This document shows, piece after piece, positions 31,498 through 50,531 of a DNA stretch of 64,000 bases (position 1 is the first letter of the stretch; the number at the start of each line of letters is the position of its first letter). The DNA lies in IMG/VR virus record IMGVR_UViG_3300035208_003115, one strand, 5' to 3'. Source of the DNA: a virus. Its lineage: Duplodnaviria; Caudoviricetes. A program made the position numbers and the translations under genes. The notes under the pieces were generated by a model. It ran no database searches and was not told where the DNA came from. It worked only from the letters and a program-made list of their open reading frames with translations.

Positions 31498-32760
31498 TTA
31501 GATGTTGCGATCAGGAGACTGAACAGTATCGACCTGGTGGACGTCGCTGAAGTTATACGTCTGAGCCAGAGCGATATTACGGGCAACTGCGATTGATTTG
31601 CCCTGAGACAGTGTTCCAAGACCGTAAATCTCACGAATCTTGAGAGAACGAATGTCCCTTAGAGGATCATTGAAATCCTCGGTTGAGATATCCTGTTTCT
31701 GAACTAGGACGCCCGTTTCTGCGTCGTCGAGAACGTAGATATCAGTGAGAGGTGTCTTGGCCTTGCTTGATGCGTCTGTAACCAGGGTTGCGCCCGGAGC
31801 AAGTCCATCAGACATCTTGGTAACAGTGGCACCCTTCGGGATGAAGCGGACATACGGAGAGACCATGACCCGTAGTGCAACCGGGAACAGTCCCTGCGGA
31901 AGTGCCGTCTGAGTTGTGGTGAGGTTCGGAGCAATGGTTCTCTGCTTGAGATTAGGATTACCATCCCAGCCAGTCTGACCAACGCTACCGGACATCTGAC
32001 CACCCCAGAAGTGACCAGCCATCTTGGCGATTTCGCGAAGGAACGGATCCTTAGCGAACATTGCCCATGCGAGCGGGTGCATGATGATTGTGTTCGGGGT
32101 CCAGCTGCCGTTAAGCAGGTAGGCGATCATGTCGAACAAGTCATCAAGGTGAATGCCACCATTAAGAGTTCCGGTGCGATCCACGCCACGAGTTGCACCG
32201 ATAACGGCCAAGGCGGGCTCGACGTTGTCGAACACCTTCTGGCCCATCGTTGCGAACAACGTTGCGCACTTGACTTCCTTGTGACGAGCAAGAGCGCGAC
32301 CAGCAGCACGAAGATGCATGCCAATGACATCCCACTGGGAGTCATTGATCATTTCCTCTGTGATGCGAACCAAGAGACCAGACTTCGTGACATTGATAGC
32401 CACGATGTTCCCGCCTCCGAGGTCTAGCTGCTTCTCGGGATATGCCTGGCCCTCGCCGATATCCTCTGCAGTGATAGCGCCGACTGCCGGGAATTCGATA
32501 GAGCGACCAGTATTGATCCTGATCGTTTGAAATAGCTCGGAGATTACGAGCCGGGGCTCGATAGCCTCTTTAACGACCTGCGAGATCACCTTTGGGATGA
32601 ACATCGTCATGTCAGTAGAGACAAGCAAGTCCTTGACCTTGAAGGTCAATGCGTCAGATACAACACCGTTATTCAAGAACATCATCTCAACGTTCTTGAA
32701 AAGCTTATCCTTGATGGCCTTAGCTTCGGCGGTTGCTGCATCGTTAATCGGTGTACTCAT
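31498..32760 (-). CDS. Major capsid protein (HK97 fold)
   Basis: FIPKVISQVV, AEDIGEGQAYPE, KSGLLVRITEEMINDSQWDVI, PNTIIMHPLAW, IREIYG; RBS AGGAGG. Confidence 0.9.
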   Translation of the reverse strand: MSTPINDAATAEAKAIKDKLFKNVEMMFLNNGVVSDALTFKVKDLLVSTDMTMFIPKVISQVVKEAIEPRLVISELFQTIRINTGRSIEFPAVGAITAEDIGEGQAYPEKQLDLGGGNIVAINVTKSGLLVRITEEMINDSQWDVIGMHLRAAGRALARHKEVKCATLFATMGQKVFDNVEPALAVIGATRGVDRTGTLNGGIHLDDLFDMIAYLLNGSWTPNTIIMHPLAWAMFAKDPFLREIAKMAGHFWGGQMSGSVGQTGWDGNPNLKQRTIAPNLTTTQTALPQGLFPVALRVMVSPYVRFIPKGATVTKMSDGLAPGATLVTDASSKAKTPLTDIYVLDDAETGVLVQKQDISTEDFNDPLRDIRSLKIREIYGLGTLSQGKSIAVARNIALAQTYNFSDVHQVDTVQSPDRNI

Positions 32761-33637: not shown

Positions 33638-35290
33638 CTATTCACTGCGCGGATAGTAGCGTCCGCCAAATAACATGGCACCGATTTCAACTGGGGTCAT
33701 GCTATCTATTGTCCGACGAATCTGATCCAACTGGCTCTGAACTGGGGACTGCCCATGTTCATCCTTTATTGCAACTGGGGCTGGCTTGACCTGCTTTGAG
33801 ATCTTGGTCTTCCGGAGATCCGTGATGGCATCTACGATAGACTCTAGTGACCTCTTTTGCATTTCATCGGCAACCACTTTACGCTCGTCATCTGATGCGT
33901 AAGTTTCCAGTCCAAGGGTCTGTTTCAGATCTAGGAGTTCTGCGATTTTCTCATCGCGAATCCCAGACTGTAGATCAGAAATCTTCTGGACTAAACTTCT
34001 ATTCTCGTCAGTAAGCTCCTGATTCTTCTCAGCTAGCTCCTTGATACGAGGATCTTCACCTTTTGGCTCTTCAGCCTTAGGTTTATTAGAATCAGTAGCC
34101 ATCGGAGCTTCGGGCTCTTTAGGAGCCTCTTCTTTCCCCGGAGCAGCTGGTTCTTCTACGGGCACTTCTTCTGCTGGTGCTTCAGCTGGTGCTTCAGCAG
34201 CCGCATCTGCCGGTGCTGGAACCTCAGGTGTTTCTGCAGGAACTTCCTTGGCGGGAGTTTCAACAGGCGCTTCAGTAGCAGGAGCTTCTACGGCTTCTGC
34301 TGGGGCAGCCGGCTGTTCCTCTGGCCTTGGAGCTTCTACTGGTGTATTATCTGCCACTAGGTTAGCCCCTTTCGCAGGGATTTTGGCCTTAGCATCATCT
34401 AGGTGTTCTATTACTTGAACTAGACGCTGTCCATAGACCTTATAGAGACTATCGACTGTTGTCGAATCATCTAGATTCACCATTTTCTTCAGGGCGTCGT
34501 TCAAAGCGTATAACTTGAACATACGCCTAGAAGTGTCAGCGACCTGCTTGTCAATGGTTGTATTCTCTTTGTAGTTATAGACTTCGAGAATACTGTCTTT
34601 CGCATCTCCCTCAATCTCTCGATTAAGGACTACAGCAAACGGGTCGGCTGGCTCATTGACAAATGAGAGTTCATCCCAGACGAACTTGCCACCAGTCCAG
34701 TAAGCCATCTGAGTGATTCCCGTATCTTCGTCAGTGTATTCGTGACCGAAGCGGTGCTCGCATCGTCCATCTGATAACCAGTTCTGATTACAGATGGAGC
34801 AAGTCATCGCATCGGTTTCACCGCTAACAGAAACGGTAAGATATCTTCCGTCGAGAACCTTTTGGACCGCTTCTGGGTCCGAGACGTTTACAAGGTTCTG
34901 CATATGACCAAGACCACGGAATGAAAAGTCTTGGCTTCGAATGGAGTTCTTAAAGTTAGGCGTTGTGATCGGAACTGTTGAACGCCATATGGATCCTAAA
35001 TTTCTACCGAGAGGTTCGGTCTGAGTGTCATGATTCTTCAGAACGGGTTTTGGATAAGGTTCCGTCCACGACTTTGTAGACTGAGCCAATTCCTCTGGCT
35101 TGTAATAGCCAAAGTTTCCATTAACAATCCCACCATGGGTAACTGCGATTTCCGAGAGAAGACCAACTTTGCTCCCGGACTTTGCCGAGTCGAGAACCAT
35201 ATTAGCAACATGGTCTCTAACTTTAGGAGCGATACAGGCTAAGGAATCTTTGATGTCGAATGCTTCGAAGATTTTAGCTGACTTGGCCAT
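33638..35290 (-). CDS. Prohead protease fused to scaffold
   Basis: PVLKNHD...PLGR, YLTVSVSG, ELSFVNEPAD; CSIC...CEH insert; Pro/Ala/Glu linker and coiled-coil C-terminus. Confidence 0.85.
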   Translation of the reverse strand: MAKSAKIFEAFDIKDSLACIAPKVRDHVANMVLDSAKSGSKVGLLSEIAVTHGGIVNGNFGYYKPEELAQSTKSWTEPYPKPVLKNHDTQTEPLGRNLGSIWRSTVPITTPNFKNSIRSQDFSFRGLGHMQNLVNVSDPEAVQKVLDGRYLTVSVSGETDAMTCSICNQNWLSDGRCEHRFGHEYTDEDTGITQMAYWTGGKFVWDELSFVNEPADPFAVVLNREIEGDAKDSILEVYNYKENTTIDKQVADTSRRMFKLYALNDALKKMVNLDDSTTVDSLYKVYGQRLVQVIEHLDDAKAKIPAKGANLVADNTPVEAPRPEEQPAAPAEAVEAPATEAPVETPAKEVPAETPEVPAPADAAAEAPAEAPAEEVPVEEPAAPGKEEAPKEPEAPMATDSNKPKAEEPKGEDPRIKELAEKNQELTDENRSLVQKISDLQSGIRDEKIAELLDLKQTLGLETYASDDERKVVADEMQKRSLESIVDAITDLRKTKISKQVKPAPVAIKDEHGQSPVQSQLDQIRRTIDSMTPVEIGAMLFGGRYYPRSE

Positions 35291-37466: not shown

Positions 37467-39367
37467 TAGGACTGCCCCTTCGTTAGCTGGTTAATCCAAG
37501 CTGTAACTTTCTCAACATCTTCTTGAGGGATTTTCTTAAGACATTCATTAAAGTTGTCGCGGCCCGACAGATTTGTCATTCGCACTGATCCTGAAGCACC
37601 AGAGGAGACCGAAGTGCTCGAGTCCCCTGTTTCGGGTTCTGAGCCGGTTGCAACCCCTATTCTCCTGTAGAGAGCATCAAGTTCTGCATCTGTAGGAATT
37701 GCCGAGTTCTTACAAAGCTCGCCATTTTGGCGGGCTCGGACAATAAGATCAATGAGCTTTAGGAGTCTCTTGATTTCTTTGTTCTGCTCGAGTCCCTGGA
37801 TGTAAATAACCTGATACTCTTGTTGTAGAGTCAGGCTATTATTGAGATCAATCGCAAGATCGAGAATCGAGTTCTCGATATCCCGTATATATTTTAACAT
37901 ATTATCGACAAAAGCATTCCAGGAGACACAGGAAGCCAGGTCTCTCAGGTCGCTACTCTGCGCAATCGATAGCTTCTTCCTGACCTCTTTGTTAATAACA
38001 TCGAAAAGATTGGATAATATAGCCAATATCTGAGATAAGATTATCTTCTGGATGGTCTGCCATAGATTTCCGAGAGCTGAGTCTAGACTCTCAAACACCA
38101 GGGCCTGACGGTTCATCGATATTCTAAGGATGGCCTGGCAGATACGGAGAAACTTATCGTCGTTTGCGCTTAAGAATCTAAAGAGACAGCATAGGAGATT
38201 ATCGGTAAATCCTCCACCCAAGAGTCTATTCATCCTATCAAGGGAGGATTTGTAATAATCTTTCTGAAGGGTTAAAATTTGAAGCATATCGCTTGGAATT
38301 TGGGTCGCTAGGTCGCCCGTGGTTTCTGCTGCGAGAACTGCCTCGTCAGCCTGATGCAAACCCTGTTTCTTATAATAATCGAAAATCCCAACCGATGCGT
38401 CATATTGTTTGTTCAATCCGTGATAGTGGGGGAATAGCTGGGCGGCTTCAGGCCAATAATCTTCTTCCGACTGGTATGCCGTTTCTTTTACGAATCCCGT
38501 CAAGACGAGAGAGTCGAATCTTTCTACATCCCGGCTTAACTTAGGGCCTTTCAGTATCTTTTTCCCGACCCAGTCTGTTGCGATATTAATAGCGGCACTA
38601 AAAGCAAGACTTTGAATTATGTTTTTAATTACCTTGCCAATGGCAAGAAATCCGCCCGAACCGTTGGACGGTGGGGCGATTGTCGCGAATCCAGTGCTAG
38701 TAGCAGCTGCTGATTCCTGGTCACTCTTTTGCAAAAGCTTGAGGGGATACTTTAGAACTCCGAAGACGGCAGAGACAATGAGTTTTAGAATCGCGAGGAA
38801 CAACATCATTAGAAGTGTTGCTTTCCCCGGATTCTCATTAAATCCATCTTGGCGAGTCGGATAGGAGGGACTTGTTGAAGGAAGTCCATCGGAACCAAAT
38901 GTTCCTAGGATTCCAAACTCGTCGTTCCCAAATGGATCACTAACAATGTCATTCCCTGCGGCGGCTATGCGCTCAGCATTCGTAGGGGCGTTTGTAACAT
39001 CTATGGCAGGAGATTCCATGGCCAGAGCGACCATTCTTTTATAGAATCCCCAACATGATTCATCAGACTTCTTCTGACGGACATAGCGTTCTTGTATTAC
39101 GGGAGGAAGATTTTGGCAAAGACGCATAGTCTCACCGTTAGTATCTAGGAGAGCTCCTACTGTATCGAATTGAGTTTTTAGGTCTTTGAATTCTTGCTCA
39201 AGAGTTTCAGTATCGGTGGTAATAGTTGGAGTCGGAATTGGCTTAAAGGGTTTCCCGGCCAGACCTCTGACCTTGCCTCCAACGACACGGCGAGGCTTAA
39301 AGGCAGGGATGGGTCCGCCTCCCAGTATCTTCTTTTCGTGTTCGTTATCTATTCCGCGCCGGGCCAT
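37466..39367 (-). CDS. Hypothetical helical protein with a transmembrane segment
   Basis: 633 aa; LLMMLFLAILKLIVSAVFGVL; TAATG-coupled to both TerL and portal. Confidence 0.6.
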   Translation of the reverse strand: MARRGIDNEHEKKILGGGPIPAFKPRRVVGGKVRGLAGKPFKPIPTPTITTDTETLEQEFKDLKTQFDTVGALLDTNGETMRLCQNLPPVIQERYVRQKKSDESCWGFYKRMVALAMESPAIDVTNAPTNAERIAAAGNDIVSDPFGNDEFGILGTFGSDGLPSTSPSYPTRQDGFNENPGKATLLMMLFLAILKLIVSAVFGVLKYPLKLLQKSDQESAAATSTGFATIAPPSNGSGGFLAIGKVIKNIIQSLAFSAAINIATDWVGKKILKGPKLSRDVERFDSLVLTGFVKETAYQSEEDYWPEAAQLFPHYHGLNKQYDASVGIFDYYKKQGLHQADEAVLAAETTGDLATQIPSDMLQILTLQKDYYKSSLDRMNRLLGGGFTDNLLCCLFRFLSANDDKFLRICQAILRISMNRQALVFESLDSALGNLWQTIQKIILSQILAILSNLFDVINKEVRKKLSIAQSSDLRDLASCVSWNAFVDNMLKYIRDIENSILDLAIDLNNSLTLQQEYQVIYIQGLEQNKEIKRLLKLIDLIVRARQNGELCKNSAIPTDAELDALYRRIGVATGSEPETGDSSTSVSSGASGSVRMTNLSGRDNFNECLKKIPQEDVEKVTAWINQLTKGQS

Positions 39368-41187
39368 TATATACTCCGCTTAGTTGGTCGGTTATGCTTT
39401 TGCGATTTATACTTGCCAGCTTTCCAAAGTCTATGCTGGCCAAACCACGAACGGGTATCTACTGGGATATCTCTTGGTGACACGATAGAGGGATTTTTCG
39501 CTGTCTTGTCTATCACCTTAACGGATCCATCTGGGTTCTCTTCTGGAAACTCAGACGGAGTCAGCTTTGGTTTCTCACCGAACTTCCCTGTTATCCTCAT
39601 GTTCGTAGCGTATATTGGACGGCCTAAATCTGTAAACTCTAGCGTATAGGCAAGTATCGCTAGATTAAATGCATCTAGAACGTGATCATTTCCCTTGGCG
39701 TATACCGGACGGCCTTCAGTCGTCGTATGGTCTATGACATAGTCTCTAAATTGTTTCTCCAGTTCTTTATCACTCTTATTGAGAACAATTAGATTCTTCT
39801 CAAAGAACATTCTAGAGTTATTAACCATGAACGGTTTCATGTGCTTTTTGATCATCTGTTTTGTGTGAGGATCTCTTACTTCGCACATAGAGGCCATATC
39901 AACGGCTCGTAGCTTTTGAACCATCCGAGACTCTGAATGCTTGTGCCCATACCGCCTAAGGTCTTCGACCTGCTGATGTCCATATCCCGCATCCACATAA
40001 ATGTGGCGGGGATTCCACATATAGTTCAGCTCAATAATTCTATTAACAGCTTTTGTCTGAGCGTATTCGATATCTCCTACGCTCTCTCTGGATACTACAC
40101 GAAAACGACCTCGAATACCAGCATGAAAATCTTCCTCATTAACCATCCCAGTATCATATTCTACAACTACAATTTGAACTCCATTCTTTGCCGAATTCCA
40201 GTCAACACCTATTACATATATGCACCCAGCCTTGGGTATTTGAGCCTTATAGTCCCACTTACCTTGTTCTCCAAAGAATAATCTTGCGTTCTCTTTGGCT
40301 CTGTCTACCCAAACGTGAGGATATACACCCTGTAACTGTTCTCCAAAGTCTGCCTCAACTTCGTGGAGCCATTCTGCACTTTCCTTAGACCCATACAAGT
40401 CTAAGAACTGAGATTCCATGTCTGGGCCCCAAGTCGGACTTTCTTGTGACCTAAAGTGAAATTCTTTGAATCTTTCGCTACCGCACCATTTATAAAAGTG
40501 CTTATGGGCACCAGTTGGAGTCGAAGAGGCCCAGAGCATCTTATTATAATCTTCACTCTCATCGGTCTTGGTTAAGACCATCATGATGGTATTAATATCT
40601 TCAGTAGAGAGATAATCTGCTTCGTCTAGAACAACGACGTCAGCTGATTGACCCCGAATATTTGATGCGGCCATTCCCGACTTAGTTCCGGCAGTCATCC
40701 CCAGGACTTGAGAACCGTTACGGAGCTTAAGCGTATAGGGGTCCTTAACATAGTTTGCGACAGAGCTATCAAATTCTTTAGATACACCTCTCCATTTTTC
40801 AAATCTCTCAAAGATAAGTTTGATTTGGGATTCCTGCGGAGCGATAATCAGAACTTTCTTATCTTTGTGGGTAAAAGCATAGTGAAGAGAAAAGATTGCT
40901 AGGGTCTCCGACTTCCCGGCCTGGCGACCTATACGTGTTACTTTACGGAGAGAAGTGCACTTGGCCATCAGCTCTTGATAACTTCTAAGAGTAATGCCGA
41001 GTTGCTTCCTAGACCATCTAGCAATATCCAGAAGATCTCTAAGAGATTCTTTCTCCTCCTCAGTATATGCGGAAACAGGCATTCCCTCTAAAACGTCCTC
41101 TTTAATTCCAGAGCACTGTAGAAGAGATGCCTGCTCTCCGAAACGTCTTTTTCTAGATGCTATACAAGATTCACATGCTGGGTGCAT
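39367..41187 (-). CDS. terL: Terminase large subunit
   Basis: Walker A GRQAGKSE, Walker B VVLDEAD, motif III SSTP, nuclease IGVDWN and DHVLDAF. Confidence 0.95.
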   Translation of the reverse strand: MHPACESCIASRKRRFGEQASLLQCSGIKEDVLEGMPVSAYTEEEKESLRDLLDIARWSRKQLGITLRSYQELMAKCTSLRKVTRIGRQAGKSETLAIFSLHYAFTHKDKKVLIIAPQESQIKLIFERFEKWRGVSKEFDSSVANYVKDPYTLKLRNGSQVLGMTAGTKSGMAASNIRGQSADVVVLDEADYLSTEDINTIMMVLTKTDESEDYNKMLWASSTPTGAHKHFYKWCGSERFKEFHFRSQESPTWGPDMESQFLDLYGSKESAEWLHEVEADFGEQLQGVYPHVWVDRAKENARLFFGEQGKWDYKAQIPKAGCIYVIGVDWNSAKNGVQIVVVEYDTGMVNEEDFHAGIRGRFRVVSRESVGDIEYAQTKAVNRIIELNYMWNPRHIYVDAGYGHQQVEDLRRYGHKHSESRMVQKLRAVDMASMCEVRDPHTKQMIKKHMKPFMVNNSRMFFEKNLIVLNKSDKELEKQFRDYVIDHTTTEGRPVYAKGNDHVLDAFNLAILAYTLEFTDLGRPIYATNMRITGKFGEKPKLTPSEFPEENPDGSVKVIDKTAKNPSIVSPRDIPVDTRSWFGQHRLWKAGKYKSQKHNRPTKRSI

Positions 41188-45517: not shown

Positions 45518-46240
45518 TTAATTGACTGGCTTGGCTCGTTCCGCTTTAACCGTCTCAGCTCGAGCTTCAAGAGTTTTCCTTGCCTTCTCAAGCATCGAAA
45601 GCATATTCGCAGCGTTGGTAGAAGGATCAGTTGTTGATCCCGCTCCAACTTCGGCAATAGATCTGCGAGTTGCCAGGAGAGCATCTAAGAGCTTGAGTTC
45701 GCGACGGGAAAGTGTTTCTTCCCATGCAATGGCAGGATGAAGCTCATCTCGATACTGGGGGACTCCATCATCATCGACGGCAACAATTTGCTGCTTGATA
45801 AAATCCTCATATGCAAGACGGTTGGAGATGCGCATACGATAAATACTAAGCTTGGCCAGCTCCGATACTAGATTCATTTCTACAGAGTTTTCTACATTGA
45901 CTTGTAGATCACGACAAAGTTTAGAGGCCCATGTGCTCATCAGGTGAGCTTCCATGGGGCATGGTTGACTAAGCATATACGTAAAACCGTTCTGGAGAAG
46001 GGAGCAGGATTTCGCCATAGGGCACTGAGCGCCCTTGCAATACATCGGGACCATGGCGTGATATCCGTGTTCTAGATTCCGAACCGATAGAGCCACACGA
46101 CGCATTTGTTCAGGAGTTATATCTTGGACATTAGAGTGCTCGGCTTGAGCCGCTATTGCCTGGGCTAATAGAGGAGAAACCTCCTGGTTGTTTCCAGAAA
46201 GGCTACTGTCTGAGGCCGGGGTTATCTCTGAGGGTGACAT
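45518..46240 (-). CDS. Cys-cluster helical protein, candidate terminase small subunit
   Basis: CKGAQCPMAKSC...PCPME then helical region with HPAIAW...LLATRRS; upstream of TerL in the same operon. Confidence 0.4.
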   Translation of the reverse strand: MSPSEITPASDSSLSGNNQEVSPLLAQAIAAQAEHSNVQDITPEQMRRVALSVRNLEHGYHAMVPMYCKGAQCPMAKSCSLLQNGFTYMLSQPCPMEAHLMSTWASKLCRDLQVNVENSVEMNLVSELAKLSIYRMRISNRLAYEDFIKQQIVAVDDDGVPQYRDELHPAIAWEETLSRRELKLLDALLATRRSIAEVGAGSTTDPSTNAANMLSMLEKARKTLEARAETVKAERAKPVN

Positions 46241-46451
46241 ATTCTCTATAGACCTTTACTAGTTGTTCAAGTTCGGGTAAGCATGTTTCAATCGGCATCT
46301 GTTTGGCAATTAGATGCAGATATTGACAGTCCTCCCCGTTCTTCGATAAAAGATATCTAAACTGGAAGTACGGATTATCACCCTTGTTGATAGTATCTAT
46401 TTTCGTATGAAGCTTATTAAGGGCGATATATACTTCGCGGGGTGTTGACAT
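46203..46451 (-). CDS. Hypothetical protein
   Basis: 82 aa ORF overlapping the next gene start. Confidence 0.5.
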   Translation of the reverse strand: MSTPREVYIALNKLHTKIDTINKGDNPYFQFRYLLSKNGEDCQYLHLIAKQMPIETCLPELEQLVKVYREYVTLRDNPGLRQ

Positions 46452-46521
46452 TCCCGATCCTTAAGAAGACCCGCCTATTTGAGCTTTGCGATGATGCAAG
46501 AGGCTTGACGGGTATGCTCGA

Positions 46522-46908
46522 TTAGAGTTTTGACCAGTCTCTAATTTTTGCTTGAATAACCTTTTCATCCGCAGATGGGTCGGGACCATACTTCTTAATC
46601 ATCGTTGCTGTTTTCTCGATGATGGGGCCCTGAAATATCTGCTCTCTATCGGGTTTCCGATTCTTCTCTGCGTAGACGTAAGGTTTCCCGGAGAGATAGG
46701 TTCTGGCTAGGTGTGTCGCCCGGGAGGCGTTACAGACGTAGTATCGCCTATGAAACTGGAGTGAGTTTAATTTATTACTTAAACTCTCCGTCTTCTCGCC
46801 TTTTAGTTTCAGATACTTGATTTGTTTCTTGAGCTTTTCCTCTTCGTGACGGATAATTGCTGGCTCAAGAGCCAGGTGCTTTGCTTTAATCTTTAATTCG
46901 ATGCTCAT
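46522..46908 (-). CDS. Basic phage hypothetical protein controlled by the amber leader
   Basis: 128 aa MSIELKIKAKHLALEPAIIRHEE...; its RBS GGGAGA lies in the 3' arm of a hairpin. Confidence 0.7.
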   Translation of the reverse strand: MSIELKIKAKHLALEPAIIRHEEEKLKKQIKYLKLKGEKTESLSNKLNSLQFHRRYYVCNASRATHLARTYLSGKPYVYAEKNRKPDREQIFQGPIIEKTATMIKKYGPDPSADEKVIQAKIRDWSKL

Positions 46909-46911
46909 TGT

Positions 46912-46959
46912 ATTCTCCCTATGATAAGTTTTTTGCTACAAAACTTGACATCGGAGAAT
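46912..46959 (-). promoter_or_regulatory. RBS-sequestering hairpin
   Basis: AUUCUCC-G-AUG-UC-AAGUUUU / AAAACUU-AU-CAU-AG-GGAGAAU covers the SD of the gene starting at 46908. Confidence 0.75.
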
Positions 46960-46993
46960 GCGGTGGTGGACGGATTCTGTTCTAGTACTTCAT
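46919..46993 (-). CDS. Leader peptide with in-frame amber codon: MKY*NRIRPPPHSPMSSFVAKNLS*
   Basis: SD AGGAGGA (47001-47007) 7 nt before ATG 46993; TAG at codon 4 (46982-46984); second TAG at 46919-46921. Confidence 0.7.
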
Positions 46994-47011
46994 TTCCTAT
47001 TCCTCCTGAAT

Positions 47012-47085
47012 TGGTGCCCCTAGTGGGATTCGAACCCACGTAGATCGTTTTAGAGACGACCGCATTGCCATTATGCTATAGAAGC
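47012..47085 (-). tRNA. Amber suppressor tRNA (anticodon CUA)
   Basis: 74-nt cloverleaf GCTTCTA TA GCAT-AATGGCA-ATGC G GTCGT-CTCTAAA-ACGAT CTAC GTGGG-TTCGAAT-CCCAC TAGGGGC A CCA. Confidence 0.92.
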
Positions 47086-47099
47086 GGTTATGGCCTCAA

Positions 47100-47176
47100 T
47101 GGTTGCAGGGGAGGCGCTCGCATCCTCGTATCCGGGGTATGAACCCGGCCTGGGTCTATCTCCAGAGTACCCTGCT
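47100..47176 (-). tRNA. Atypical initiator-like tRNA-Met (CAU)
   Basis: A1:A72 mismatch; anticodon stem CCGGG/CCCGG with loop TTCATAC; encoded CCA; T-loop TGCGAGC and D-arm non-canonical. Confidence 0.7.
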
Positions 47177-47182
47177 ATACAC

Positions 47183-47211
47183 ATCCTAACAAGAAAAGGC
47201 TTAGTTTTCAA
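47183..47211 (-). promoter_or_regulatory. Sigma70-type promoter of the tRNA cassette
   Basis: TTGAAA-N17-TAGGAT with TG extension; predicted +1 coincides with the tRNA-Met 5' end (47176). Confidence 0.6.
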
Positions 47212-49004: not shown

Positions 49005-50531
49005 TTATCGTTTCCGGGTTTGTTCTTCCTCCACCCCGGCTATTAGTCCGAAGTCTGTCGGGATTTCAATCCCAATGACCTCTGTGTTTCTCTGATTAAG
49101 CTTGGCAGCCATTTCAGAGGCTTCAGCCTTGGTCTCAGTTACTAGTTGCTGGACCCGAGCTTCAGGCAAGCGCATACCTGCGAGCATTGTCTTAACGATA
49201 ACGAACTCGTTAAGTGTTTTGTTCTCGTAGATACCGCGGTTAAGCCCACCTGCACCGATCTCTTCCTTCAAGTGGTTATAAAGAGCCTCTTCGAACGAAT
49301 GACTCTGATCGAAAGTGTCTTTCCCCGGCTTGATAATAACAGATGCTGCACGAATGGTAGTTTTGTGATCGAATCCAGTAGCGAAGAAACCACGGTCAAT
49401 CGACCTAATGGCTTCGGCCAATTCCGCTTCACCCGATCCGTTCACTTTCGCTGTCTCGACCATGGAATCACCAAGAGAAAGGAATCCGGGTGTCATGAGG
49501 ACGTTCTTGTAGTCCTGAGCATCAAAGGTCGTATCAGCAGCCTCTGCCGAGTAGCGGTTGAAACTATCGAAGAGGTTGACGATCTCTCGATTGGCACTAT
49601 GCCAGAAATCCGAGTTCTTTACGTCTTTGAGACGCTCCGAGACTCTCTGGTTGTCAATCACGACAATCGACTTGAGACCCTTCTTGTTCGCGACCTCTTG
49701 GAGGCCTCGAAGACAGTTGACCTTCTCGTCTGTTCCCTCATTTGTTCTTGGGAGGGTAACAATGGCTCCAGTTGGAACTCCAGTAGAGGCAGCCAACATA
49801 GCAACCTTGGATCCTCCAAGTGTGCCTGTTCCACCACCGAGTCCGAAGCACACATAGATGAACTCTTTGTTGTTGAACTTTCTCTGAATCTTTTTCATGA
49901 GAGTATTTGCATACTCATCAATAGCCTGAGCACCAACATCAGGCCGTTTGCCCGCTCCACCCGCGGTTGTAATCAACTCGATCCGCGAGAACTCGTCGTG
50001 GGGAATATTCTGCAGATGGGCAAAATCCCTATCCGTTAGATTGACGGCCATAACATCATAGCCCGCCTCTGCGAATGTATCAGCGATTTTGTTGCCAGCC
50101 CCTCCTACCCCGATAATCCCAATATCCAAGGAACGCTTAATGTCCTTGATACTTCCTGCTGTAGCTTCTGCTCGAACGTCCATTGTCCTAACCTCCAGGT
50201 TTTTAACCTTTGATATTTCTCTTGCGGGTTCTTTCGCCTCAGGTAATTTTACCGGTGTGGGTTTTTGAGGCTTATCTTCACCCACTGCTTCAAACTTATC
50301 TACAGACACCGGTTCTGCCCATAACTGTTCGCCCGACTCATCGTTCATGAACATTGCTCTTGCCGCCTCCAGAACTGTATCCCTGGGAAGAGTCCGATAA
50401 GATGTCTTCGCAGGTAATTGATGAGGACATCCCGGGTGTCTACACCCCGGATAAGGACAACGCTGTAGGGTCCATGTCGTGTTCAGGTCGCCCTTTAATT
50501 GACCTGTCCCCAAGATGTAACAGTATATCAT
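49005..50531 (-). CDS. Tubulin/FtsZ-family GTPase (TubZ/PhuZ-like) with N-terminal Cys/His extension
   Basis: GIIGVGGAGNKIA, GGAGK, GLGGGTGT signature, VIDN, T7-loop-like TFDAQDY. Confidence 0.9.
   Translation of the reverse strand: MIYCYILGTGQLKGDLNTTWTLQRCPYPGCRHPGCPHQLPAKTSYRTLPRDTVLEAARAMFMNDESGEQLWAEPVSVDKFEAVGEDKPQKPTPVKLPEAKEPAREISKVKNLEVRTMDVRAEATAGSIKDIKRSLDIGIIGVGGAGNKIADTFAEAGYDVMAVNLTDRDFAHLQNIPHDEFSRIELITTAGGAGKRPDVGAQAIDEYANTLMKKIQRKFNNKEFIYVCFGLGGGTGTLGGSKVAMLAASTGVPTGAIVTLPRTNEGTDEKVNCLRGLQEVANKKGLKSIVVIDNQRVSERLKDVKNSDFWHSANREIVNLFDSFNRYSAEAADTTFDAQDYKNVLMTPGFLSLGDSMVETAKVNGSGEAELAEAIRSIDRGFFATGFDHKTTIRAASVIIKPGKDTFDQSHSFEEALYNHLKEEIGAGGLNRGIYENKTLNEFVIVKTMLAGMRLPEARVQQLVTETKAEASEMAAKLNQRNTEVIGIEIPTDFGLIAGVEEEQTRKR

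Follow-up and report, generated by a model that had tools for sequence, protein, structure and literature searches.

Why should a phage place an amber codon near the start of a short leader, a few nucleotides behind its own amber-suppressor tRNA? The question is raised by a 64,000-nucleotide (nt) stretch of the IMG/VR virus record IMGVR_UViG_3300035208_003115 (Duplodnaviria; Caudoviricetes), hereafter the window. In this stretch a tRNA with anticodon CUA, tRNA(CUA), is followed by a leader open reading frame (ORF) with an in-frame TAG, by a hairpin enclosing the Shine-Dalgarno (SD) sequence of the next gene, and by this gene, which encodes a protein of 128 amino acids (aa). The reading favoured here, with a probability of about 0.75, is that the 128-aa gene would be translated only upon readthrough of the UAG, which would carry the ribosome to a pause at Pro-Pro-stop or at an Arg-x-Pro-Pro (RxPP) motif and so unmask the SD.

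All genes of the window and all features of the putative switch lie on the minus strand. From 5' to 3' the order is tRNA(CUA), 4 nt, SD, ATG AAG TAC TAG, the codons for NRIRPPP, the hairpin and the 128-aa gene, as follows:

47183 to 47211, minus strand: promoter-like site (TTGAAA, 17 nt, TAGGAT, with an upstream TG), from a consensus scan only and weak as evidence
47012 to 47085, minus strand: tRNA(CUA) called by ARAGORN (Rfam tRNA, 65.6 bits), with CCA encoded at 47014 to 47012, A73, a G1-C72 pair and the anticodon loop CUCUAAA
47001 to 47007, minus strand: leader SD AGGAGGA, 4 nt (ATTC) past the CCA and 7 nt ahead of the leader ATG, read from the sequence
46982 to 46993, minus strand: leader start ATG AAG TAC (ATG at 46993 to 46991) and the putative gating TAG (46984 to 46982), with A as the +4 base, read from the sequence
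46961 to 46981, minus strand: post-amber codons AAC AGA ATC CGT CCA CCA CCG, that is N-R-I-R-P-P-P, read from the sequence
46972 to 46961, minus strand: candidate arrest motif RPPP, codons CGT CCA CCA CCG, read from the sequence
46919 to 46960, minus strand: rest of the read-through leader in translation, H S P M S S F V A K N L S, and a second TAG (46921 to 46919)
46912 to 46959, minus strand: SD-sequestering hairpin predicted by RNAfold, with 5' arm ATTCTCC (46959 to 46953) and 3' arm GGAGAAT (46918 to 46912)
46951-46949 with 46923-46921, and 46946-46940 with 46932-46926, minus strand: inner stems of the hairpin predicted by RNAfold
46522 to 46908, minus strand: ORF of the putatively gated 128-aa gene

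In the window the 5' arm begins 2 nt after the third Pro codon, and the 3' arm GGAGAAT is itself the SD of the 128-aa ORF. Sequence, ARAGORN and Rfam all agree with the leader anatomy given in a preliminary description of this locus (SD 4 nt past the CCA, ATG AAG TAC TAG, NRIRPPP). The hairpin that it had drawn, with an AUUCUCC arm and a GGAGAAU arm serving as the ribosome-binding site of the gene, was reproduced by RNAfold.

Is this arrangement kept in relatives? Upstream regions were compared at 107 loci (25 viral, 80 metagenomic and 2 from metagenome-assembled genomes) encoding homologues of the 128-aa protein at 36-62% identity. The pattern scored was ATG, 0-10 codons, one in-frame TAG, 1-7 codons and CCN CCN; its count is limited to the 104 loci with 140 nt upstream, and all codon statistics refer to 78 unique leaders. 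It is present in 98/104 loci, for a chance rate of 0.13% in shuffled upstream regions and of 0.14% in other 140-nt windows of the same loci. SD-like purine runs also precede the leader ATG in the relatives. The SD-ATG-xx-TAG-RPPP conservation on which the preliminary description had staked its case therefore holds for the SD, the ATG, the TAG and Pro-Pro. Every leader with at least 110 nt upstream carries the in-frame TAG and none has a sense codon in its place, while the same search run for TGA- or TAA-gated leaders returned 0 in 108 stretches. Ahead of the TAG, 1 to about 10 codons specify mostly polar residues (the shortest forms being M-UAG, MK-UAG, MF-UAG and ML-UAG), so that the amber codon is the fourth in the window and lies at codon positions 2-11 in relatives. 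Leader length is 8-15 residues, and the spacing from TAG to Pro-Pro is 2 or 3 codons in 69/78 leaders. The base following the TAG is a purine in 76/78 leaders (60 A, 16 G), with one U and one C; a +4 U is described as a context that reduces readthrough (PMC5289835).

Five of the six exceptions have the same opening in another form: ATG TCG TAG is followed by 81 in-frame codons that end in Val-Pro-Pro-TAA at the usual place before the hairpin. These loci (L059, L062, L076, L080 and L082; e.g. L080:2183-2437) form one sub-lineage. A good SD is found there ahead of the first ATG only, so that the protein of about 80 aa is perhaps made solely by amber readthrough; if so, the 81-codon ORF may be a protein-coding gene inserted in the leader. 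In an IMG/VR scan the exact 18-nt IRPP-type leader pattern gave 22 matches, 15 of them ahead of the 128-aa gene family. The carriers belong to more than one lineage, since the terminases of three complete or nearly complete relatives of 167-174 kb match that of the window at only about 31% identity and over part of their length.

Conservation continues behind the TAG, at the level of the peptide. Positions 1 and 2 of the Pro codons are invariant and all four bases occur at position 3: the first codon is CCA in 45, CCT in 22, CCG in 9 and CCC in 2 leaders, the second CCG in 35, CCA in 19, CCT in 14 and CCC in 10. The residue before Pro-Pro is R in 40, K in 21 and H in 7 of the 78, with Arg encoded by CGA, CGC, CGT or AGA and Lys by AAA or AAG. 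This wobble variation, combined with the kept [R/K/H]-Pro-Pro, shows that the post-TAG codons are selected as peptide. An anti-SD-like RNA element was considered as the cause of CCN CCN and rejected, because CCA CC, the form seen most often, would be unable to pair with GGAGG.

A stop codon directly follows Pro-Pro in 69/78 leaders (TAA 64, TGA 5, TAG 0). In this majority form, [R/K/H]-P-P-stop, no residue stands between the basic residue and Pro-Pro; the window has R-P-P-P. Apart from the RPPP of the window, the motif is RAPP, RGPP or RSPP in leaders without a stop right after Pro-Pro, and RDPP closes one leader of the Pro-Pro-stop form; these four cores occur in a minority only (L024, L107, L021/23/92/99, L075/84, L065 and L098). 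RAPP and RGPP are experimentally versatile arrest motifs resistant to EF-P, and RSPP and RDPP are partly permissive (PMC12992588, PMC10951233, PMC7897499). Prolines at the C-terminus slow or impair termination (Hayes et al. 2002 via PMC12856214; PMC6412442 section 5.6). The usual arrest element of the family is, as far as sequence can indicate, a termination-type stall at [R/K/H]-Pro-Pro plus TAA or TGA. The RPPP which the preliminary description had put forward as stall element retains the conserved Pro-Pro and appears as a derived form of this norm.

How does the leader relate to the SD of the downstream gene? The SD guanines are paired in the minimum free energy fold of 76/78 leaders, with the stretch just after Pro-Pro as their partner, and the 5' arm starts 0-7 nt after the Pro codons in 74/76 leaders with a traceable stem. 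The arm sequences differ widely between lineages. In an arm-swap test cognate arms reached -13.4 kcal/mol and swapped arms -7.3 kcal/mol (permutation z = -22.5), statistics that are inflated by relatedness among the loci. When a helix without gaps is anchored on the SD, 80% of its pairs over 13 positions are canonical, compared with 42-56% when one side is slid by 1-3 nt, and several of its positions show two to five pair types (e.g. UA 32, GC 24, AU 8). Both tests support the pairing, as hairpin covariation in homologues was expected to do. A consensus from MAFFT and RNAalifold contained no pairs, since the alignment does not bring the arms into register; the structural evidence thus comes from per-sequence folding, the arm-swap test and the anchored-helix count.

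As in an attenuator, a ribosome paused on the leader would cover the 5' arm with its footprint, and the SD lies in the 3' arm. With UAG in its A site, a ribosome reaches about 12-13 nt beyond this codon, whereas the 5' arm starts at a distance of 15-25 nt from the UAG, so that a ribosome terminating at the amber codon would remain short of the hairpin. With the stop codon after Pro-Pro in the A site, by the same geometry, the ribosome would cover most of the 5' arm. A spacing of 2 or 3 codons between TAG and Pro-Pro is thus about the shortest at which termination and readthrough could have different effects on the hairpin.

The suppressor tRNA is tightly linked to the leader. It is present in the window and in 95/108 stretches, and its 3' end lies about 95-130 nt upstream of the putatively gated gene in most loci; in others the distance is 260-820 nt on the upstream side or about 880 nt on the downstream side. 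Where no such tRNA is present, the flanks are mostly truncated. The co-occurrence anticipated in the preliminary description is thus confirmed, with the tRNA directly upstream in most loci. However, its further proposal that the switch stands ahead of the whole morphogenesis module was not borne out: most relatives carry the leader and gene inside tRNA arrays, of up to 23 genes, so that the switch would gate the 128-aa gene and not the structural module. In the window the suppressor is the sole tRNA found by ARAGORN in 64 kb. A73 is present in 68 of 72 cases. The nearest non-suppressor tRNAs were tried as a guide to amino-acid identity and gave an inconsistent answer (Leu 22, Met 20, Trp 6 and others).

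Some features of the arrays deserve mention in their own right. Many array tRNAs called Leu by ARAGORN (anticodons UAA, UAG and CAA) are about 77 nt long (L004, L005, L006, L008, L016 and others), a length which implies a phage tRNA-Leu without the long variable arm typical of bacterial tRNA-Leu; by a crude similarity ranking, such short Leu-type tRNAs are among the nearest neighbours of the CUA tRNAs. Three loci encode a tRNA with anticodon UCA, labelled SeC by ARAGORN, that would read UGA (L058:3544-3621, L083:2053-2125 and L102:3396-3469). Its distance downstream of the 128-aa gene ranges from a few hundred nt to about 1 kb, and no UGA-gated leader was found in these three loci. A manA RNA motif (RF01745, 64.3 bits for a gathering score of 55.2) occurs at L038:67-267, within a tRNA array and about 220 nt upstream of tRNA(CUA).

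Does the suppressor serve a genome in which TAG is generally a sense codon? Long ORFs are intact under table 11 in the window and in G003 (L112-L120), a complete relative of 170.8 kb, and no internal stop interrupts the terminase matches of relatives. A single TAG separates 3 ORF pairs in the window and 15 in G003; TAA separates 10 and 18 pairs, and TGA 7 and 15, respectively. TAG splits are thus no commoner than the others, and neither genome shows genome-wide TAG recoding. TAG is moreover used as a genuine stop by 14/66 ORFs of the window and 17/235 of G003. No other arrangement of a short ORF, TAG and a long ORF was found on the coding strands of the two genomes, which leaves the leader as the sole evident designed target of tRNA(CUA).

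Stop codons are unevenly distributed along the window. TAG ends 12/33 ORFs upstream of the tRNA and 2/33 downstream (Fisher p = 0.005), while TAA ends 29/33 downstream, among the structural genes, and 12/33 upstream, where TGA ends 9. In the structural region of G003 TAA is likewise preferred over TAG and TGA, in 47/52 ORFs. Avoidance of TAG by late genes was discarded as evidence of suppression because TGA is depleted too, and the regional bias looks like a general preference of late genes for TAA rather than TAG avoidance. Two TAG-ended ORFs of at least 50 aa lie downstream of the tRNA, at 33638-35290 (minus strand, 550 aa) and 46203-46451 (82 aa). The TAG of the 550-aa ORF directly precedes a second in-frame stop, so that readthrough would add no residue.

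These observations suggest a switch that would report whether UAG is being read as a sense codon. A single transcript, which the promoter-like site about 98 nt upstream of tRNA(CUA) may drive, probably carries the tRNA together with the leader and the 128-aa gene, and ribosomes would initiate at the leader. In the OFF state, release factor 1 (RF1) would terminate at the amber codon; the ribosome would stop short of the 5' arm and the SD of the gene would stay paired. In the ON state tRNA(CUA) would outcompete RF1, and the ribosome would proceed by 2-3 more codons to [R/K/H]-Pro-Pro and TAA or TGA or, in the minority, to RAPP, RGPP, RSPP or RDPP, and in the window to RPPP. Such Pro-Pro contexts would mean slow termination or arrest. 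The paused ribosome would occupy the 5' arm, the SD would be freed and a second ribosome could start the 128-aa gene. In the window, the ribosome would continue through the hairpin to the second UAG, which lies 10 nt ahead of the AUG and is specific to this locus; this could add coupling of termination to reinitiation.

Several points weigh against this reading. Comparative conservation strengthens the amber-readthrough switch proposed in the preliminary description, but the ON direction is read from geometry and conservation. A Pro-Pro-stop stall can also provoke A-site mRNA cleavage and the action of tmRNA. In addition to the relatedness which swells the permutation statistics, the hairpin of the window is by itself not exceptional among its shuffles (z = -1.4); the case beyond chance rests on the comparison across loci. 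The window also departs from the family design in having no stop after Pro-Pro, and polyproline stalls such as might form at its RPPP are normally relieved by EF-P. Finally, the second stop of its leader is again UAG, so that strong suppression would send ribosomes over the start of the gene in another frame. The window is thus an atypical, derived variant, in which PPP lacks a stop and another UAG stands 10 nt ahead of the start codon. It may work partly by coupling and, as a matter of speculation, might respond best to intermediate suppression.

The stall might have another consequence than the opening of the hairpin. Readthrough could trigger A-site cleavage, tmRNA tagging, decay or tRNA-mRNA processing, whereby expression would be lowered or reshaped and not switched on. 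Pro-Pro-stop is a classic context of termination stalling and SsrA tagging (Hayes et al. 2002 via PMC12856214), papers on A-site cleavage from the Hayes laboratory exist, and the conserved features set the position of the stall, not its outcome. However, the position of the arm 0-7 nt past the Pro codons, with the SD as 3' arm, in 76/78 leaders is a layout that unmasks the SD in ermC, secM and RAPP-type leaders and that has no obvious role in decay; moreover A-site cleavage would leave the hairpin free to re-form. This alternative appears unlikely. Only a little less credit can be given to a device that chiefly reads the activity of host RF1, or the translation state, in the way that the UGA of prfB does for release factor 2 (RF2), with tRNA(CUA) setting no more than a baseline. 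By established decoding kinetics, RF1 and the tRNA compete for the UAG, with the +4 purine tuning the balance, and both enter the output. Nevertheless the tight linkage of tRNA(CUA) in most loci speaks for the tRNA as part of the device, as does the lack of any TGA or TAA version of the leader in the 108 stretches. This explanation overlaps with the readthrough switch instead of replacing it.

It is distinctly improbable that UAG is a plain sense codon in an ordinary arrest-peptide or coupling leader that senses nothing. Phages whose suppressor tRNAs read TAG as sense across late genes are well documented (10.1101/2021.08.26.457843), but conserved genes of the window and of one complete relative show no in-frame TAG, genuine TAG stops persist in both (14/66 and 17/235 ORFs), and in about 104 loci the TAG is never exchanged for a sense codon although the other N-terminal residues vary freely. 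The least probable of these explanations, with hardly any weight, is that the first three or four codons constitute a stand-alone minigene like lambda bar and that the Pro-Pro codons are untranslated. Several leaders are indeed very short before the TAG (M, MK, MF or ML), yet the length of this part varies from 1 to about 10 codons, and the wobble pattern, like the stop that is kept behind Pro-Pro, shows that translation past the TAG is under selection.

The readthrough switch could also be extended in a tentative direction, which we consider possible though doubtful. The suppressor and the amber leader would then form a dedicated orthogonal checkpoint that licenses the 128-aa gene, whose product would act on the translation apparatus and close a feedback loop. 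The main or only task of the tRNA would be the licensing of this one gene, and the device would report that expression, processing and charging of the tRNA are in order, or serve as a timer. The effector would target RF1, the ribosome or host tRNAs and so set the UAG-decoding state of the cell. A loop of this kind could mark an evolutionary step on the way to full recoding of a stop codon.

To which known systems is the readthrough switch related? Its logic is apparently that of leader-peptide attenuation and arrest peptides, with a new input, tRNA versus release factor. RAPP-like arrest peptides (ApdA, ApdP, ApcA, SecM with RAGP, and the RAPP/RGPP upstream ORFs of Streptomyces) combine a short upstream ORF, an Arg-x-Pro-Pro stall and downstream control (PMC12992588, PMC10951233, PMC7897499), and a minority of the amber leaders carry such a core (RAPP, RGPP, RSPP or RDPP). 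However, the known peptides monitor export or membrane insertion by an N-terminal signal or transmembrane segment and are released by pulling force. The amber leaders have no such segment, and the downstream gene encodes a soluble helical protein of 128 aa, which sets them apart from monitors of Sec or YidC. RAPP-like peptides furthermore stall with Pro-tRNA in the A site, whereas most amber leaders would undergo a termination stall, with access to the motif gated by UAG. In ermC attenuation a ribosome paused on the ErmCL leader likewise melts the SD hairpin of the downstream gene, but this pause needs a macrolide in the exit tunnel, while the trigger proposed for the amber leader is stop readthrough by a co-encoded tRNA, with no drug. 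The prfB gene, for RF2, likewise uses an early in-frame stop to sense the efficiency of termination at that codon. It does so by a +1 frameshift inside the regulated gene and measures RF2; the amber leader would weigh RF1 against a suppressor tRNA, in a separate leader and through a hairpin. The codons behind the TAG are kept in the zero frame, and the regulated ORF is separate, in another frame and about 50 nt downstream. The TnaC leader also has a basic residue and Pro before its stop (Arg-Pro-stop), and inhibited termination holds the ribosome at the end of the leader. Unlike the amber leader it needs free tryptophan and acts on Rho-dependent termination, and it has neither an in-frame stop gate nor an SD hairpin.

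The closest designed counterparts are engineered switches with a UAG in the leader, in which downstream expression likewise depends on amber suppression (Liu et al. 2011, as summarized in PMC6412442 section 6). These switches are synthetic, employ unnatural amino acids with orthogonal tRNA/synthetase pairs and work at the level of transcription, by way of tna- or trp-type leaders, whereas the amber leader is natural and would act on translation. Phage tRNA(CUA) has likewise been proposed to regulate through in-frame TAGs in phages that use code 15 (10.1101/2021.08.26.457843). Such phages have many in-frame TAGs in late genes. The window and G003 share with them the matching suppressor tRNA but use the standard code, without many in-frame TAGs in conserved genes, and the leader TAG is the sole designed one found. 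The word 'leader' is absent from the main text of that survey of recoded phages, and full-text literature searches found no description of a natural amber-gated leader.

What would the switch control? The 128-aa protein has homologues in 335 clusters and is 'hypothetical' wherever it is named. No match was obtained with Pfam, including a member-by-member scan of the alignment, or with PHROG families, and a profile search against PDB sequences returned no match to a solved structure. The AF2 model (pLDDT 94) predicts a long helical hairpin (residues 3-35 and 41-72) followed by three short helices. The N-terminus is nearly invariant from residue 1; invariant residues gather there and on helix 2, and the tip of the hairpin carries insertions. 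Foldseek against PDB and VIA-align run widely gave only generic alpha-hairpins (the arm of SerRS, ESCRT-III), with Z values usual for helical models, and all ESM Atlas scores were below 0.85. Longer fused forms are represented by a single 333-aa protein with XPG_I on one contig of 1.3 kb, possibly a gene-call artefact. No conserved downstream partner gene was found among the related loci. A link to Pth2 was rejected, since PF01981 is missing from five related phage records, of which four are at least 96% complete. The closest match in an annotated phage is a segment of 80 nt with 79% identity in a Synechococcus phage, inside the N-terminal coding part of the 128-aa gene. Given a basic, invariant helical hairpin, as modelled, and a home among tRNA genes, our best guess is a role related to translation or tRNA.

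The window derives from a large phage, with genes for a TubZ-like tubulin (49005-50531), the large terminase (39367-41187) and the major capsid protein (31498-32760); the longest sequence among members of the cluster of its 128-aa protein is 146,893 bp. Two RNA structures flank the switch. Upstream of the tRNA, at 47086-47182 (minus strand), a segment of about 95 nt adopts a cloverleaf-like fold with three arms, which GCAGGG/CCCUGC closes and after which AACCA comes. This segment was rejected as a tRNA remnant, since it has no Rfam tRNA match and its fold is not significantly stable (z = -0.8); it perhaps represents a decayed tRNA of a former array, or nothing. At 46469-46512 (minus strand), 10 nt past the stop of the 128-aa gene, a hairpin matches the Rfam abiF RNA (RF03085) with 37.6 bits for a gathering score of 37, conserved loop bases included (CAAGCCUCU..., GCUCAAAU). 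The abiF RNA is described as the RNA partner in AbiF toxin-antitoxin and abortive-infection systems (bioRxiv 10.1101/2025.04.15.648962). No AbiF-sized gene was seen beside this hairpin in the window, and by a strict pattern the hairpin is absent from 120 related loci, where other hairpins or a tRNA occur instead. An orphan phage abiF RNA could be a decoy for the antitoxin RNA; the match could also be due to chance.

The suppressor tRNAs of phages that do not recode had no clear target, and here a tRNA(CUA) has a conserved one a few nt away. If the readthrough switch is real, it would be a natural sensor of stop readthrough, a device hitherto built on purpose by synthetic biologists, and regulation by arrest peptides would extend to a new kind of signal, the balance of tRNA and release factor in their competition for a codon. 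Very short leaders ending in [R/K/H]-Pro-Pro-stop could then serve as arrest modules, and the element would be a compact, portable part that reports amber suppression. For the phages themselves, the switch would represent an intermediate stage in the evolution of code change, and the 128-aa family, with its 335 clusters, would be a prime candidate for a new translation-related phage factor.

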